Shown: positions 28,591-59,818 of the stretch, piece after piece
Numbering within the stretch: position 1 is the first letter of the stretch
Layout of the letters: each line of letters opens with the position of its first letter
Source: Escherichia coli
Lineage (GTDB): Bacteria; Pseudomonadota; Gammaproteobacteria; Enterobacterales; Enterobacteriaceae
Assembly (NCBI RefSeq): GCF_002854065.1
Contig: NZ_CP024147.1
Reading direction: 5' to 3' (one strand)
Length of the DNA stretch: 64,000 nt
The notes under the pieces: generated by a model
The model's database searches: none
Seen by the model: the letters and a program-made list of their open reading frames with translations, nothing else
What the model was told of the DNA's origin: nothing
Made by a program: the position numbers and the translations under genes

Positions 28591-29637
28591 TTACTCCAGC
28601 GCATCCCATTTCTCCAGCAGTTCTACTGGAATTTCATTTATTACCTCCGAGAAGCGTTTTCCGACCAGGCGTTCTGCCTGGCGCAGCAAAGGAATGGACG
28701 GGCTGCTCGGTTCGCTGTGCTCAAACCAGCGACGGATAACACGCAGGCGTTCCAGCGCGTCGTTCCGGTCGCGGATTTGCCGGGGTTCTGCGCCGGTCAT
28801 CGGTGATATTTCCTCCGAGATACGCACCGGTAGCGCAATCTGCTCTGCCTGCATCTGTTCAGTATGATCGATGGTGGCGTTCTCCGGCTGTTCAGCCTGT
28901 GGTTGTGGCAGGATCTCCGGCGTGGTGCTCTGCACTGCTCCCGGCAACAGGGCTAGCAGTTGCGTCAGACGGGAGAAGTCCGGTGCCTGGTCATTCAGCG
29001 TTTCACGCGCATGGCGTTGCAGCCGCTCAGTGGTCTCTGCTGCCTGGCGAAAGGCATCCAGCGGCAGTGTGCCGCGCGCTTCCAGGTCTGCCAGTTGCTG
29101 GCGTACCGATTCTGGTGCCAGCGCATCCGCCGGACGTAATGCAGATAGCGAACGCTCCACATCCCGTACCTGAAGGCGCATGGCAGCATTATTTGACAGT
29201 GTAATGCCACGAATATCCGCCATTACGCCTTCGTGGTCCAGCAACGCCGCCAGCGCGTTACTGCGTGCCACCGCAGCATCTTCGGCGGTGATATCTTCAG
29301 TCGCGAGCAGTTGAGGATGGATGGCGTCCGGGTACGTGGCGCACAACGTTTCCAGCAGCGTGAGCGTCTCCGCCAGTCCCCTGGCACCGGCCTGCTGGAT
29401 ACGGCAGCGCAGCAGGACAACCAGAATGCGGATATCTTTGCTGCGCATCAGCAGACGATGGGCGTCCCGCTCAAGCTCCGCCCAGTTAATGTTTTCAGGC
29501 GTACTGACAAAATCGCCATATTGCGCTTCTTCACGCGGTGCGGCGCGGGTGAACAGCAGCAGGTATTCCGGATCGTACTCCAGATCCGGGCCGCAGGGGC
29601 ATTCCGCCGAAATTGGGTCAGACAGGAATATTTCCAT
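28591..29637 (-). CDS. tssA: T6SS ImpA-N-domain protein (TssA-like)
   Basis: 348-aa ORF; N-terminus …ISAECPCGPDLEYDPEYLLL… resembles the ImpA_N signature. Confidence 0.7.
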   Translation of the reverse strand: MEIFLSDPISAECPCGPDLEYDPEYLLLFTRAAPREEAQYGDFVSTPENINWAELERDAHRLLMRSKDIRILVVLLRCRIQQAGARGLAETLTLLETLCATYPDAIHPQLLATEDITAEDAAVARSNALAALLDHEGVMADIRGITLSNNAAMRLQVRDVERSLSALRPADALAPESVRQQLADLEARGTLPLDAFRQAAETTERLQRHARETLNDQAPDFSRLTQLLALLPGAVQSTTPEILPQPQAEQPENATIDHTEQMQAEQIALPVRISEEISPMTGAEPRQIRDRNDALERLRVIRRWFEHSEPSSPSIPLLRQAERLVGKRFSEVINEIPVELLEKWDALE

Positions 29638-32538: not shown

Positions 32539-33033
32539 TTAAAAAAACGTAATGCGGCTCTGCTCCATATCCAGCGCGCTACGTACCCGGAATGCAGTCG
32601 GATACGGCTGCGTGAGGATCTCGCCGCGAATTTCAAACTGTAATGTGTTATGGCCACTCTGGCGGCGCTCATCCTGAAGTGGGATGATTTGCAGGGTGGA
32701 CGCTTTCAGCCGGGGTTCAAACCGGGTGATGGTTCGCAAAATGGCCCTGCGGATATCGTCCCACTTGTGCTCATACAGAAAGCTGCCCGCCAGTGGCGGC
32801 AGGCCGTAGTTAAGTACGGATGCTGCCGCGTACGGATAACGTGCAGCATCAATATCATCTTCATGGCTGACGGTGTTGAGCAGAAATGACAAATCCCGGC
32901 GGATGATCTCCTTAAGCTGAACCGGGCTGACGCTGATACCGTGGTCGCGTTTCTGGTTTGGGGCGTCGTCACACAGGCGGTCAAACAGCGTGGGCAGCAG
33001 GTGATTGCCTGGACGCTGGCGGGAAGCGCTCAC
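32539..33033 (-). CDS. tssE: T6SS baseplate protein TssE (gp25-like)
   Basis: 164-aa ORF …LFDRLCDD… with GTG start overlapping the upstream stop (GTGA). Confidence 0.7.
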   Translation of the reverse strand: MSASRQRPGNHLLPTLFDRLCDDAPNQKRDHGISVSPVQLKEIIRRDLSFLLNTVSHEDDIDAARYPYAAASVLNYGLPPLAGSFLYEHKWDDIRRAILRTITRFEPRLKASTLQIIPLQDERRQSGHNTLQFEIRGEILTQPYPTAFRVRSALDMEQSRITFF

Positions 33034-33860
33034 GCGTCGCTTCCTTCAGCGGTGTTAAAGGTACAGGTGGACAAATCCAGCAGGCTGATATCGCCGTGAC
33101 CGGTGAGCCACACCCTCTGACCCAGCGCCTGTACCAGTGTCTCTCCCGGACCGTCCTGCCAGACTGTTTCCCGGCACAGACGCAGGGAGTCGGCAGCCTT
33201 TTCAGAGCCGCTGTAGCGGGGAAACAGCTAGGCACTGTGTGTATCGCCATTGTTCAGGGTGACGTTGACGGGTTTCCAGATCAAATCGATCAGATGCGCA
33301 GGCTGCGGCGATTTCAGCGAACAGATTTGTGAAAACGGCAGCCAGATATATGCTCCGCCCGCGATCAGTTCGAGTACCGGACCGGTACGGGAGTCGCTGT
33401 CGCTAATCCAGTCAAATGCGCCGCCATTCCACTGCCCGGAAGTGTCTGTTATGGCCTCAAGCGCGCGGCTGCGGTGGGTGTCAGCTTCCTGCGCTTCACC
33501 ACGGGCGTTACAGGCGAGGGCGGTCAGCAGATCCTCCATCCAGGCGGGCGGCGGGAGAATAACACCGGGTCGCTGTTCGCCCTGAAAGCAGACGTGGCGG
33601 TATATCTCACAGCGGATCAGCTCGCCAAATACCTGCGCTTCGCGGGTATAATTTGCGTCCATCCGGGCGCATAGCTGGATCTGTTGCAGTGCCCGCGACC
33701 AGTCGCCTGCCACGCAAAATAACTGAAACAGGCTGTGGCGGCTGGAGGCCTGCGCTGGGTGCATCCTGACCTGCAGCTCTGCCATCTGAATGCCCTCCGC
33801 CAGGGAATAATCCCGCAGCAGTGCCGACAAGGTAGTCGGTAGCTTGTTAATGTTTGTCAT
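33030..33860 (-). pseudogene. tagJ: T6SS accessory protein TagJ/ImpE (SciE)-like, interrupted by an in-frame amber codon at 33228-33230
   Basis: 210-aa ORF stops at TAG; the same frame continues about 65 codons to a TGA that overlaps the tssE start, giving about 275 aa in total. Confidence 0.55.
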
Positions 33861-36448: not shown

Positions 36449-36539
36449 CTGTTCTCCAATGACTAGTCTAAAAACTAGTATTAAGACTATCACTTATTTA
36501 AGTGATATTGGTTGTCTGGAGATTCAGGGGGCCAGTCTA

Positions 36540-39390
36540 CGAACTGACGCATTGGTTGCATCAGTTAATACAACAACCAGAGAATGACATTCACAATGTG
36601 CTTCGACATTATCAAATAACATCTGCTGATGTTGAGAAGGCGTTAATTCAGCAATTGAATATATTGCCTGCCGGAGCGAGTGTAATTAACGATTTTTCCC
36701 ATCATATCGATCTTTCTGTTGAAAAAGCCTGGATGTTGGCAAGTATCCGCTTTGGCGATCAAAAAATTCGTAGTGGATGGTTATTACTTGCCTGGTTAAC
36801 CACGCCAGAATTGTGTCGGGTGTTAAAAAATATTTGTGCGCCATTGGCAGAGCTACCGGTAGATGAACTATTAGATATTCTTCCGTCTTTAATCACTTCA
36901 TCTCCTGAATTAACAGAAATGCCTTATGACGGCTCGGATTTAAATTCTGCAGTACCGGGGGAAGCTAGCCAGGTCTTTGCCGGCGAATCAACTGGAAGCA
37001 AATCCGCGCTGGCGAAATACTGTCAGGACATGACTGCGCTGGCCCGTGAAGGCAATATCGATCCGGTCACCGGTCGCGAACACGAGATCCGTACTATGAC
37101 GGATATTCTGCTGCGCCGTCGCCAGAACAACCCGCTACTGACCGGCGAAGCGGGAGTCGGGAAAACGGCAGTGGTGGAAGGATTCGCGCTGGCGATTGCC
37201 GGGGGGGAAGTACCGCCTTCACTGCGTAACGTGCGGTTGCTTTCACTGGATGTTGGCGCGCTGCTGGCTGGGGCGTCCATGAAGGGTGAGTTTGAATCTC
37301 GCCTGAAAGCGTTGCTGGAAGAGGCCGCGCACTCGCCGCAGCCGGTAATCCTTTTTGTTGATGAAGTTCACACGCTGGTGGGCGCTGGTGGGCGCTGGTG
37401 GTACATCCGGCACCGTCGCATCACGGGCAGTGTGCAGTCCTGGCAGTATACGCCGCGCGGGCTGCTGGCGCTCCATACGGATGAAGAGAAACGGGAGACG
37501 CGCTGGCAGTACACCCCGGAAGGGCTGGTTGCCAGTCTGAGCAACGGCAATGGGGCTCAGTACCGGTTCAGCTACGACGGCGACGGACGGCTGACGGGAG
37601 AACAGCGCCCGGACGGTCTGATACGGATGTTTGCGCTGAATGCGGGCGGGTTCCCGGTCATCATCCAGACGCAGGGCACAGAAGGAGGGATGCGTAATGA
37701 GCGACAGGAGCGTGATGCGCTGGGCCGCCTGCTGCGCAGTGACACGCAGCACAGTACACGGACCTTCAGCTACAACCGTCTTGACCAGATAACGGAAGTG
37801 ACGCTCACCCCCACGGAAGAAGGGGAACGGCTGCACCACATGCAGGCGGACAGGGTGCGCTTTGCGTATGACCGCAGCGGCTGGCTGACGGCAGAGCACA
37901 GCGTGCACGGCAGCATAAAGTACCGGCGCGATGCGCTGGGCAATCCCACCGATATCACCTTACCGGACGGGCAGCATCTCAGCCATCTTTACTACGGCAG
38001 CGGGCATCTGCTCCAGACGGCACTGGACGGTATCACGGTCAGCGAATATGAGCGTGACAGTCTGCACCGTCAGGTGATACGCACGCAGGGGAAACTGGCG
38101 ACGTTCAGCGGCTACAACGCCGACAACCGGTTAAGCTGGCAGCGCAGCCTGCCAGGTGGCAGCCAGAATCCACAGCAGGCCGGTACTCCCCCGGCGCAGA
38201 ACGACAGCGTGACGGCGCGGGACTATATCTGGAACGCAGACGGTGAAGTCGGCGGCATCAATGACAAACTGCGCGGTTGCCTGGTGTTCAGCTATGACCG
38301 CAGCGGCTGGCTGACCAGCCGCACGGGGCAGATGTATGACCATGACCATTATTATTACGATAAAGCGGGCAACCTGCTGACGGATGAGTATCAGGGAGCG
38401 GTGCTGGACAACCGCCTGCCGGGCTACGGGCGTGACCGTTACCGCTATAACGAATGGGGCGAACTGACAGAGCGCAGGGACCAGCAGCTGGAGTGGAACG
38501 CGCAGGGCCAGTTAACGCGGGTCATCAGCAGCAACAGCGAGACGCGGTATCAGTACGATGCGCTGGGCAGGCGCATCATCAAGGCGACCAGCAATCTCCA
38601 TACCGACCGGGGAGAACGAAGCCGGACAACGTTTGTGTGGGAAGGGTTCCGGCTGTTGCAGGAGACAACGTGGCAGGGAAAGCGGACATACCTGTACGAC
38701 GCGGAACAGCCGTACACGCCGGTGGCGGCCATCACCGGGCGCGGAGAGAGTCAAAAAATCTGGTATTACCATACGGACCTGACGGGCACGGTACAGGAGG
38801 TGACCGCGCCGGACGGGACGCTGGTGTGGGCGGGCTACCAGGCGGGATTTGGTGAAAACCGGGGCGACATCAGCAACAGCGGGGCGTACTTTGAACAGCC
38901 GCTGCGGCTGCCGGGGCAGTATTATGATGAAGAGACGGGGCTGCACTATAATCTGTTCAGATATTATGCGCCGGAGTGCGGGAGGTTCATAAGTCAGGAT
39001 CCGATAGGGCTGGCGGGTGGAATAAACCTCTATGCTTATGCTCCTAACCCAATTAGCTGGATCGATCCCTTTGGACTGGATTTACACCATATAATACAGC
39101 AAGAAATTTGGAAGGAGTTCAAAACAGATCTTAAAAAAGTCACCGGATATGTACAAAATGTCACGAAAAAGGCAGCCGACATGACAAACCTAATCGATCT
39201 GGATAAACCTTTTCATGGTAATCACCCAGCTTATAGTCAATATGTAAGAGAAGCAATCGAAGACCTGAAGGCTAATAATAACTTAACGTTGAAAGGATTA
39301 AGAGATTTACAAGATGATCTTAAAAAGAAAATAGGTGAAGCTCAAAAGTCTGGCAAAAATCTAAATGATTATTTTAAATCGGGGTGCTGA
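36540..39390 (+). CDS. chimeric ORF: 5'-truncated ClpV/TssH N-domain and AAA+ D1 Walker A region fused in frame to an Rhs YD-repeat core with a C-terminal toxin domain
   Basis: Residues …[13 protein letters not shown]…[13 protein letters not shown] are ClpV-like, then YD-repeat sequence (…[13 protein letters not shown]…), then the DPFGL junction and a roughly 110-aa C-terminal tip; no native start codon, as the track start lies inside the IS2 inverted repeat. Confidence 0.75.
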
Positions 39391-39845
39391 TTATGAGATA
39401 CAAAAAGGTAACTGTTTCTTATGAGCCTGCAATCACAGGAAATAGTAAAGGAGGGTATTCAGTAGAAATAAAAGATAGACTCTCTTTTAATAGTCCTACG
39501 GAGAGAAAATACTTTGAGTCTTTTTTTGAAAATAATGATGAAAACTATAATAGAGTTTTTATCAATAATTTTGAAACTATTGATACAGTTTATCTAAAAA
39601 ATTTAATTTTATTTCCAAAACAAAAAAGGATAAAGGAAATTGATATGCTAATATTTTCCCCGCACAAACTCGGACTTAGTTTTATGATATCGGAGAAATT
39701 ATATAATATTATAACTAAATTTAAACTTCCTCCGTTCAATAAGATACCAGCTCAAATCAATACATTCAATACGAAGTATTTTTTGATCGGTTTCCCAATG
39801 ATACCAAAAGAAAGAATTGATTTAGATAAATCTATATTTTTTTGA
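39384..39845 (+). CDS. putative Rhs immunity protein (cognate to the toxin tip at 39060-39390)
   Basis: 153-aa AT-rich ORF whose ATG overlaps the rhs stop (ATGA); typical toxin/immunity arrangement. Confidence 0.6.
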
Positions 39846-41038
39846 TACAAAAAAAAGAAGTGAATTTAATTTCAAATCATATGATGAATTCATCAAAATG
39901 GATTACTCTATTATACCTAAAAAAATATACCCAGATGTATTTTATGATGTCGATGTTATCGGTTTTCAGGGCAAAGGGCTATTTTTTTCTGACAGACTGC
40001 TTGATGCAATACAAAATGCCGGGATTGTAGGGTTGCATATCGGTGACACGGAAATGGAAATGAATCCGTAGATTGATACAGGAACTTTCACTTTTAAAGG
40101 GATCTTTGGTGTCTGCGATTTTATCTTTCTGTTGGTTATTTAGCAATCCGGGAACGATATTAATCCGCTGAAGATCCTGATTTATCTACGGGGTAAATGC
40201 CCGAAATATAGAAGGTTTTATATTGGATCATATGAAAGGGGATCTTAACCTTGAAAATGCCATCAGGAAAGATGGTGGATTTTATCATAGTTATAATGAA
40301 AATAATCTTGCAGAGGGACGAAAATATTTAAGCACGGAAGAAATTAGCAAAATCCTCGAAAAGGGTAGTGTAACTGATGTTGATAGTAAAGGGCACTTTA
40401 AAGCAGGAGGATGTTGAATGAATAGTATAATAAATAAAAATATAAAAAAATAGATATGATTACTAAGGGTATTAAAAAATATCCTCTTGGAGAGGACAAG
40501 CAAGAGATCTCAAAATTAATTTGCGATTTTGAAAAAATGCCACGTAAAGAATGTAGTGTGTTTTATGGTGTTTTTTTTAATGATAGTGAACTAGTAGATA
40601 AATTAATTAAGATTGCAAGATTTTATGAGGGTGATGATAAAATAACCATAAACGTAATATCCTCTTTGGGAAATATGTTCGTGCGATACAAAATATATCC
40701 ATCAGAAGAATTATATAATCTTTTTTTTCAACTTGAAAAGTAAGAGGAAAGTTAATTATTATGTTTCTTTGTTCATTTTTAGATTTCCTCAATTTAGGAA
40801 TTATAAATTTAAATGGGACTATATTTTATCTATTCCAGATATTTCACCAAAAGATAAATCAAAAAGAAACTTTTACTCTATAGTCAATAATATCGTTTTG
40901 TCGGGAGAAACGATCCCTGTTGAGTATAAAAATAGAGTTATTAGCTTGCTGGAAATGTTTAGTAAGGGAAATATGGGAAGCGTGTATAATGATGAATATA
41001 TAGATTTAATTAATAGGCTAGTTAAGCAACACGGCTAA
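39846..41038 (+). other. AT-rich array of degenerate orphan toxin-tip and immunity ORFs (39898-40071, 40223-40417, 40456-40743, 40733-41038)
   Basis: Short ORFs in shifting frames, homopolymer A/T runs at frame breaks, and a degenerate Rhs junction-like sequence near 40160-40195. Confidence 0.45.
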
Positions 41039-41322
41039 GTCGGAACGTAATAATCTCGGTGAATATTGGTTTTTATTCTCCCGGATCTCCGCCAGTACTA
41101 ACAGGCGAAAATCCGGGAGGACTGATATTACGGCTGGATAATATCGTCAATAAACACCACACCATCAGTAGTACGCAACCAGCGCGGCGCTTTCAGTTTT
41201 GCCGCAAAGAACCAGATCAGTTCACAAAGCAGCCCCGTCAGGGGTTGTTCCATTTTAGATCCCTGCGCCTGTTCCGTCAGGATCTGGAGTAATACCTCGC
41301 AATATTCACACAATTGTAGTGG

Positions 41323-42735
<1,413 letters not shown>

Positions 42736-42973
42736 TGACACTCTATAAGAGTTTCAGCGAAGCGATCGCAGTGATCGGCCAGGTCTGTGAAATCGGTGGC
42801 AGAACTGAAAGGAATGGACAGTAAATCATAATCAGGGGTGAGGATTGTAGCCATAAGGCAACCTCCGATAAGTAGGCGTTAAAACCACCACCGAAGAGAC
42901 CAATCTTACGGGTGGTGGAATCGGGCGGAGTTGGTCTTACCGGCCTTATCGGATACCGGCGCATCTTTCGATG

Positions 42974-43811
42974 CTGGCAGGGAAAGCGGACATACCTGTA
43001 CGACGCGGAACAGCCGTACACGCCGGTGGCGGCCATCACGGGGCGCGGAGAGAGCCAGAAAATCTGGTATTACCACACGGACCTGACGGGCACGGTACAC
43101 GAGGTAACCGCGCCGGACGGGACGCTGGTGTGGGCGGGCTACCAGGCGGGATTTGGTGAAAACCGGGGCGACATCAGCAACAGCGGGGCGTACTTTGAGC
43201 AGCCGCTGCGGCTGCCGGGGCAGTATTATGATGAAGATACGGGGCTGCACTATAATCTGTTCAGATATTATGCGCCGGAGTGCGGGCGGTTTATCAGTCA
43301 GGACCCGATAGGGCTGGCGGGAGGAATAAACCTATATGCTTATGCGCCTAATCCGCTAAGTTATATTGATCCTCTTGGGCTTTGTAAATTAAGGGGAAGC
43401 GATGGGCGCTACAGAAGTGCACAGAATATTCAGGAAGAAATAGGCGGCCTACCCAATTTTGCAGGAAAAACTCCAGGAGAAATACGACAAACTTTGCGTA
43501 ATCGAGGTTATTCGTCGGTACAAGCGTATAGTGGAGGAGAGGTCTGGACAAAAGCATTACCTGACGGAAATACTGTTGCAGTGAGGCTTGATCCGGCAAA
43601 TCCTCGCTCACCTTCACATTATGCTGATGCTGTACCTCATGCTCATATTGAAACAGTTCCAACATCCAGTGTTTCTAATGGGAATTATCGCCCGCGAGAC
43701 GTGACTGGCAGGCATACTGCCACTGGTGGGGTTTCTGATCGAGGAACAAATCCGAATCATAACGCTGATGTTTACATTCCAATGTCTCCGGGACGATTCC
43801 CATATGATTAA
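42974..43811 (+). CDS. orphan Rhs C-terminal fragment (conserved core end plus alternative toxin tip); no upstream rhs body
   Basis: About 400 bp that are nearly identical to 38672-39070 by eye (core end through the DPxGL junction), followed by a different roughly 140-aa C-terminal domain. Confidence 0.7.
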
Positions 43812-43822
43812 TGTGAGGTTTT

Positions 43823-44086
43823 ATGAATATCCGAAATCAATATAATGAAGCCTTAAATAAATTAGAAGTTGATGTTAATGATGGTTTGAGAGATTTAATA
43901 AACATATATTGTGTGGCTATTGATTCTTTTGAAAATGATATCGTTGACTCGATTGCTTTATACGTGATTGATATGGGAAATAAAGATACTTGTCGATATC
44001 TACAAGAAGTCTTATCAGAGAATGAAGATCCTTATTTAGTAAAAGAATTTAATGCATGGATAAAAGAAATTAAGAAAAAATATTAA
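43823..44086 (+). CDS. putative immunity protein for the orphan Rhs toxin tip
   Basis: 87-aa AT-rich ORF 11 bp downstream of the toxin-tip stop. Confidence 0.55.
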   Translation: MNIRNQYNEALNKLEVDVNDGLRDLINIYCVAIDSFENDIVDSIALYVIDMGNKDTCRYLQEVLSENEDPYLVKEFNAWIKEIKKKY

Positions 44087-44091
44087 AATAA

Positions 44092-44133
44092 AAGCCGGGA
44101 AGGTTATAAAATCTTCCCGGCTTTTTATTTTTA
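44092..44133. terminator. bidirectional rho-independent terminator
   Basis: agccgggaag…cttcccggct stem flanked by A- and T-runs, between convergent ORFs. Confidence 0.75.
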
Positions 44134-44364
44134 ATTCTCGTTCAGTACACTAAACATCCCGTCCCGCATCCCCTTAACCGCCTGTTTAACCTGATAAAGT
44201 TCCCTGCGCAGTTCCTGTACTTCGTTGTTATCGGCAAGCAGGATCAGGCAGCCTTCCGAGATCTTCACAGTAACGCCCGTGCCGATCGAAAATTCCGCTT
44301 CTCTCAGCCATTTGGCGCTGATTTTGATCACCGGCGTGTCGCTGCTGTTGGGCAGATATCCCAC
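44131..44364 (-). CDS. SymE-like (AbrB-fold) toxin homolog
   Basis: 77-aa ORF …ISAKWLREAEFSIGTGVTVKISEGCLILL… resembles the SymE/SpoVT-AbrB swapped-hairpin family. Confidence 0.5.
   Translation of the reverse strand: MGYLPNSSDTPVIKISAKWLREAEFSIGTGVTVKISEGCLILLADNNEVQELRRELYQVKQAVKGMRDGMFSVLNEN

Positions 44365-58534: not shown

Positions 58535-59818
<1,284 letters not shown>

Follow-up and report, generated by a model that had tools for sequence, protein, structure and literature searches.

The window analysed here is a stretch of 64,000 nucleotides of Escherichia coli DNA (contig NZ_CP024147.1 of assembly GCF_002854065.1), in which a truncated rhs gene ends in a low-GC toxin/immunity cassette. 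We read this cassette as the C-terminal toxin of a type VI secretion system (T6SS) Rhs effector, of the AHH clade, together with its cognate immunity gene, both kept as a genomic relic in a decayed, non-deliverable locus of a known toxin/immunity kind, and we put the probability of this reading at about 0.8. The cassette comprises the following features.

39079..39390, plus strand: predicted toxin tip, Tox-AHH (His-Me finger / HNH-EndoVII); Pfam PF14412, 40-sequence alignment, AlphaFold2 model
39085-39090 (H8/H9), 39187-39189 (N42), 39214-39216 (H51), 39223-39225 (H54), 39232-39234 (Y57), plus strand: tip motif residues
39393..40071, plus strand: putative immunity gene for the tip, 225 aa in undamaged form, frameshifted here; MXAN_0049-like (Imm11/Imm43) fold
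39837..39843, plus strand: T7 homopolymer with an extra T, then GATAC and an A8 run; comparison with related copies

The toxin lies at the end of a chimeric open reading frame (ORF) of 962 aa (36502-39390, plus strand, ending in KSGC), in which the conserved Rhs core closes with WIDPFGL. With DPFGL at 39064-39078 and the TGA stop at 39388-39390, the tip past the junction occupies 39079-39387 and measures 103 aa; it starts with DLHHIIQQ and also contains FHGNHP. The first-pass annotation of this DNA had described a DPFGL junction, a tip with L-H-H and FHGNHP and an AT-rich ORF next to it, all of which is borne out by the reading of this frame, and it had located the tip correctly while giving it about 110 residues. 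The GC content is 61% in the rhs core, drops to 34% past the junction, in the tip, and is lower still, at 26.7%, in the downstream ORF, for which a value of about 25% had been noted, low as found here if not exact.

In Pfam, the tip is recognised by AHH (PF14412) at E 3.3e-10, the match covering positions 13-105 of the 111 in the model. A total of 15 close relatives were obtained by database search and 61 by profile search, and most of them carry a precomputed assignment to PF14412, with PF14411 (LHH) in none. The 40-sequence alignment of tips has H8, H9, I11, P12, N42, L43, F50-H51-G52-N53-H54-P55 and Y57 as nearly invariant columns, with N42 invariant and H51, H54 and Y57 invariant or nearly so, and these four residues are all kept in the window. 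The codon at 39097-39099 (position 12) encodes Q, while at least 90% of the relatives have P at this position; Q is found in the window and in the related copies L003 and L004 (an E. coli contig and a Logan contig, respectively), and P in the orphan copies of E. coli XJ34 and GF3-3 and in the Citrobacter copy.

The immunity gene begins at ATG 39393, 2 nt past the rhs TGA (TGAttATG), so that the start codon reported earlier as overlapping the rhs stop does not overlap it. All immunity homologues begin with MRYKK or MKYKK at the position of this ATG; the previously given length of 153 aa is the count from GTG 39384, a start with a 7-nt overlap with the end of rhs, and the count from ATG 39393 is 150 aa. 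This frame stops at 39845, just past the T7 tract, and the +1 frame is open to 40071; deletion of one T yields a 225-aa protein with 100% identity, from end to end, to E. coli protein P0001. The immunity gene had therefore been placed rightly, directly downstream of the toxin, but it is not an intact gene of 153 aa, the real gene having 225 codons and a frameshift in T7. The tracts read T7/A8 in the window and T6/A8 in L003, L004 and GF3-3, where the gene is intact, and T6/A7 in the decayed XJ34 copy, whose cassette has further indels and a stop codon in the tip. In the predicted structure, the frameshifted 150-aa product lacks the last third of a single domain, including six strands, and it is probably inactive.

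Immunity homologues were found directly downstream of tip homologues, with gaps of 2-13 nt, in E. coli, Citrobacter, Apibacter and a metagenomic lineage. The identities of tip and immunity protein to those of the window are 83% and 63% in Citrobacter, 58% and 40% in Apibacter, and 49% and 36% in the metagenomic lineage. Such adjacency and co-divergence are as expected for a cognate pair, which supports the pairing at the level of sequence. The AlphaFold2 model of the immunity protein is a single compact alpha+beta domain (predicted local distance difference test, pLDDT, 96.9; predicted template modelling score, pTM, 0.91) and shares the fold of MXAN_0049 (PDB 6A4C), with 15% identity in the structural alignment; among its neighbours in AFDB50 are proteins that bear the names Imm43 and "Immunity MXAN-0049 protein domain". 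Conserved adjacency and this fold both support the immunity reading. We had also considered the 225-aa protein as an Imm11-like motif duplicated in tandem, which was dropped since the model is one compact domain.

An exhaustive profile search recovered 307 cluster representatives (50% identity) of the immunity family, mostly 215-240 aa in length. Among 94 members compared with Imm11 (PF07791) and Imm43 (PF15570), eight match Imm11 at ≤1e-3 (best E 2e-10), 16 match it at ≤0.1, and one matches Imm43. On the predicted fold, the 225-aa family can be labelled a divergent MXAN_0049/Imm11-Imm43-type immunity for AHH nucleases. For annotation this means that a family of "hypothetical" proteins mostly outside Pfam coverage is now assignable to this type, and that the label of the tip is Tox-AHH and not LHH.

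Decay of the locus

The remainder of the chimeric ORF and its surroundings contain the following features.

36502..37410, plus strand: clpV/tssH 5' fragment (N-domain and start of AAA1), which supplies codons 1 to ~300 of the chimera (962 aa); TIGR03345
37392..37401, plus strand: extra copy of the 10-bp unit GCGCTGGTGG, containing Chi GCTGGTGG; sequence comparison with L003, XJ34 and PapRG-06-5 tssH
37411..39078, plus strand: C-terminal ~556 codons of the Rhs core, YD repeats and RHS-associated core; TIGR03696, TIGR01643, NF041261
35211..36539, minus strand: insertion sequence IS2 in the clpV/tssH 5' end; NCBIfam IS2 TnpB E 1e-219, IS2 TnpA E 4e-83, alignment breakpoints

The clpV part is recognised by TIGR03345 (VI_ClpV1) on chimera residues 13-298 at E 1e-99, far under the full-length cut-off. 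The rhs part matches the RHS-associated core TIGR03696 at E 1e-25 and reads SQDPIGLAG...WIDPFGL, with the PxxxxDPxGL-type junction present. The alignment to the complete PapRG-06-5 Rhs (E. coli, 1374 aa) begins only at about codon 695, so that ~695 N-terminal residues are missing, and with them the PAAR/VgrG-binding part, half of the shell and everything between clpV and rhs. The window gene thus has neither the full YD shell nor the N-terminal PAAR/VgrG-interacting region of an intact, deliverable Rhs. The relic state of the locus as a whole had gone unnoticed in the first-pass annotation.

The Chi-containing 10-mer occurs in two tandem copies in native tssH and in three in the window (37370-37411) and L003. 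Native tssH reads ...CTGGTGGGCGCTGGTGGTACATCCGG followed by TACGG, while the window adds GCGCTGGTGG and then joins rhs at 37410/37411, and because the extra 10-bp copy shifts the frame, rhs is read in frame with clpV. The same clpV-rhs junction was found as a single match in none of the complete E. coli genomes. The XJ34 junction is a separate one, 2 nt deeper in clpV and 243 nt deeper in rhs, and out of frame. Both independent deletion junctions, those of the window and XJ34, are found 9-11 nt beyond the last Chi, on its 3' side, and a position this near to Chi would fit RecBCD resection halting there before an illegitimate join.

The IS2 copy is present only in the window; it is absent from L003 and XJ34, and the flanks are 99.7-99.9% identical (99.9% in L003). 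In addition, tagJ (33030-33860, minus strand) is cut short by a stop codon at W211 (W211*) in the window and L003, and not in XJ34. The tagJ nonsense codon, the clpV deletion and IS2 together indicate that the secretion system is dead.

Judging from the characterised families, in intact relatives the Rhs shell would enclose the tip and an aspartyl autoprotease in the core would cleave at DPFGL, after which VgrG, PAAR and a chaperone would load the effector onto the T6SS spike and the tip would be injected into a neighbouring cell. There it would act as a metal-dependent His-Me finger DNase, with the second of the two doublet His residues, located where strand 1 ends, as the general base, and with the first His, N42 and H51-x-x-H54 holding the metal. 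In the producer, the 225-aa MXAN_0049-like protein, probably made by translational coupling, would bind and block the toxin. This mechanism would not be operable in the window, with rhs devoid of its N-terminal residues and fused to a clpV fragment, clpV cut by IS2, tagJ interrupted, Q replacing the nearly invariant P in the tip, and the immunity protein truncated past residue 150.

Several observations weigh against our reading. The window immunity protein has no match in Pfam, even at E ≤10, nor in NCBIfam (nor, for that matter, in PADLOC), and the immunity profile run over PDB sequences reaches 6a4c at E 1.3 only, so that MXAN_0049 is reached by structure alone; the hhalign comparison with one canonical Imm11 is weak as well (E 0.01). 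The first motif residue of the tip is L, and not the A or G of the Tox-AHH definition. The 962-aa chimeric ORF is open, hence its expression is possible. Lastly, the extra T is the sole indel relative to L003 across 8.7 kb, and so the frameshift may be a homopolymer sequencing error.

The last two points bear on the possibility that the module is still functional, with T7 being such an error or bypassed by slippage, the orphan immunity protein acting against AHH-armed neighbours, and the toxin perhaps made from the clpV'-'rhs fusion. The location of the single extra T in a homopolymer would agree with this, as would the intact immunity gene kept in L003, L004 and GF3-3 despite a truncated or orphan rhs, the 10-bp repeat expansion that reopens the frame through the fusion to a stop 2 nt before the immunity ATG, and the retention of all the catalytic-motif residues in the tip. 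However, another orphan immunity gene within this AT-rich stretch has two homopolymer indels, and the XJ34 copy has other indels and a stop codon in its tip, so that decay is the pattern at this locus; the secretion system is dead, and a T7 tract is shorter than those that give efficient slippage. We therefore consider continued function unlikely. A scan for promoters and terminators over 38900-41400 gave no excess over shuffled controls, and the chimeric ORF is probably not expressed.

It is also conceivable that the relic is not silent and forms a slippage-controlled, internally expressed toxin/immunity pair, serving as an addiction module or as a phase-variable orphan immunity, since the Chi-repeat expansion puts rhs-AHH in the clpV frame and the T6/T7 and A7/A8 tracts vary between strains; we regard this as very unlikely. 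On the relic reading, by contrast, the locus clearly exemplifies how an E. coli T6SS/Rhs array decays in steps, through a deletion, the entry of an IS, a nonsense codon and frameshifts in homopolymers.

Predicted activity and clade of the toxin

On its sequence features, the tip is a predicted HNH/EndoVII (His-Me finger) toxin of the AHH clade, sister to LHH, two clades that share the same fold (PMC3482391). The Tox-AHH signature comprises [AG]HH, N, H, H and Y, with immunity partners including Imm11, Imm20, Imm23, Imm24 and Imm43, and the Tox-LHH signature comprises N, LHH, E, H, H and W, with SUKH immunity (Zhang et al. 2012, PMC3482391). The tip is put in AHH and not in LHH because the PF14412 match and the set HH, N, H, H, Y fit. 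The HH doublet is at least 90% conserved, and the residue preceding it, L here, is L, I, V, W, M, Q or K across the subfamily, in contrast to the A or G of the definition, so the literal L-H-H is, on the alignment, a mere hydrophobic substitution at the first motif position of the subfamily. The AlphaFold2 model of the tip (pLDDT 86.9, pTM 0.80) has a strand at L7-H9, a helical omega loop, a second strand at L43-D45, and a helix from P55 right after H51/H54. The first-pass annotation had called the tip an Rhs C-terminal toxin of the HNH/EndoVII superfamily, which stands, and had favoured its LHH clade, which does not; the profile search and structure prediction that it named as a check gave the AHH match and the strand-loop-strand-helix order, but no LHH match.

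By analogy with the tested members V2a, MXAN_0050 and Txe2, the tip would be a DNase. It could instead be toxic in another way, as an RNase or as a helical domain without enzymatic activity in which only the HH/HxxH motif is shared. In its C-terminal half the tip is a long helical hairpin with spurious LXG/MCP-like matches; the tip profile gave chance helical matches only among PDB sequences, and the tip, the immunity fragments and the second module described below gave nothing meaningful against NCBIfam. However, the Pfam AHH match extends beyond the helices, and the invariant alignment columns coincide exactly with the metal-finger residues. The tested AHH members MXAN_0050, V2a and Txe2 degrade DNA, with V2a requiring its HH motif, and the partner protein is folded like an immunity protein of AHH nucleases, which together make a toxin other than a DNase highly improbable. 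That the tip is Tox-LHH (PF14411, typically with SUKH immunity), with the 153-aa ORF as an intact immunity protein, is the least credible alternative and already largely refuted, for although the tip starts with a literal L-H-H two residues past DPFGL and the two clades are sisters of one fold, PF14411 gives no match even at E ≤10 and is assigned to none of the relatives, the 40-sequence alignment shows neither an N upstream of LHH within the tip nor conservation of E or W while the AHH residues N, H, H and Y are conserved, and the downstream protein has 225 aa and a MXAN_0049/Imm11-Imm43 fold rather than that of SUKH.

Origin of the cassette and the neighbouring modules

The cassette was detected in three of the 5426 complete E. 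coli genomes, and no further copy of the tip or the immunity gene was found within the window. Relatives of tip and immunity protein are mostly from Bacteroidota and bee-gut bacteria; the cassette, low in GC, looks horizontally acquired, and its source is apparently a low-GC member of the Bacteroidota. In both XJ34 and GF3-3 the AHH cassette stands as an orphan at a later position in the rhs array, and for this reason it probably came to the truncated rhs end when repeated core sequences recombined. The 61 relatives of the tip from the database are all ≤204 aa in length, the size of an orphan cassette, with a full-length Rhs in none of them by a word-indexed search; this AHH subfamily may spread chiefly as free-standing cassettes, or long proteins may have escaped a search of this type.

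Further modules of the array follow the cassette.

40191..41038, plus strand: second orphan module; 98.7% identity to the PapRG-06-5 Rhs end and the following gene
41323..42536, minus strand: IS3-family element (orfA/orfB) between the second and third modules; NF033516 E 5e-91 and 2e-13
42912..44086, plus strand: third orphan module, with Rhs core end YIDPLGL, ~140-aa tip and 87-aa ORF at 43823-44086

In the second module, 40191-40417 represents the final ~70 codons of another Rhs tip, which is intact in PapRG-06-5, and 40418-41038 its 206-aa immunity gene, disrupted at 40443 and 40721 by indels in homopolymers. The tip of this module has a weak GIY-YIG match only in Pfam (E 0.021), and it ends in KAGGC, resembling the KSGC of the AHH tip. 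The ~140-aa tip of the third module has no Pfam match, and the 87-aa ORF is presumably its immunity gene. Three ORFs of 348 aa occur in the window (28591-29637, 41323-42369 and 58772-59818), the middle one being the IS3-family transposase, and the window may hold three copies of this IS. The rhs array ends with a SymE-like ORF for a type I toxin (44131-44364, minus strand; NCBIfam E 5e-9, below the cut-off) in the window and likewise in XJ34 and PapRG-06-5.

Comparison with known AHH systems

Among the closest characterised systems is a pair of Myxococcus xanthus, in which the AHH nuclease MXAN_0050, a cargo of the T6SS of this bacterium, has MXAN_0049 as its immunity protein (PMC12077131, PMC6627406). 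This pair resembles the window cassette in its AHH toxin, in the immunity gene directly downstream and in its T6SS context, whereas the sequence similarity of MXAN_0049 to the window protein is not significant (hmmsearch E 1.3), and MXAN_0050 is a PAAR-associated stand-alone protein with A in the motif, in contrast to the window toxin, which is an Rhs tip with L in the motif and a decayed copy.

V2a of Agrobacterium tumefaciens 1D1609 is a Tox-AHH T6SS DNase that requires its HH motif, with a topology of a strand ending in His, an omega loop, a second strand, and a helix with a His ~44 residues on (PMC10902643). The tip model has the same order and spacing, with 42 and 45 residues from H9 to H51 and H54, V2a being compared by its description. 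Txe2 of Pseudomonas plecoglossicida is an AHH-family T6SS toxin with shown DNase activity; unlike the window tip, neither V2a nor Txe2 is Rhs-borne. Tox-LHH (PF14411) shares with the tip the His-Me finger superfamily, the polymorphic-toxin context and the literal LHH, and differs from it in the profile match, the other conserved residues and the SUKH partner.

Rhs-AHH effectors have been described for the E. coli T6SS1 (10.1101/2024.03.05.583533) and for Salmonella SPI-6 (PMC11669294). XJ34 itself has an AHH toxin (WP_249819451.1) with an imm11 partner (WP_097756117.1) in the same locus type and array, of the same toxin Pfam family and with Imm11-related immunity. By eye, the motif string of this toxin, AAHHLLP...NGVFLP...KPLHSGRH...SSY, resembles that of the window, [A/L]HH..P ... 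N ... KP.H..H ... Y. Nevertheless, comparison of the tip and immunity protein with this canonical pair by BLASTP and hhalign gave short, motif-level matches only, none significant, with BLASTP E 0.015 over 14 residues for the toxins and E 0.2 for the immunity proteins. Compared with the XJ34 AHH pair, the window cassette is a separate, divergent low-GC subfamily with relatives mainly in Bacteroidota; AHH/Imm11-type pairs are already known, and the cassette implies no new mechanism.

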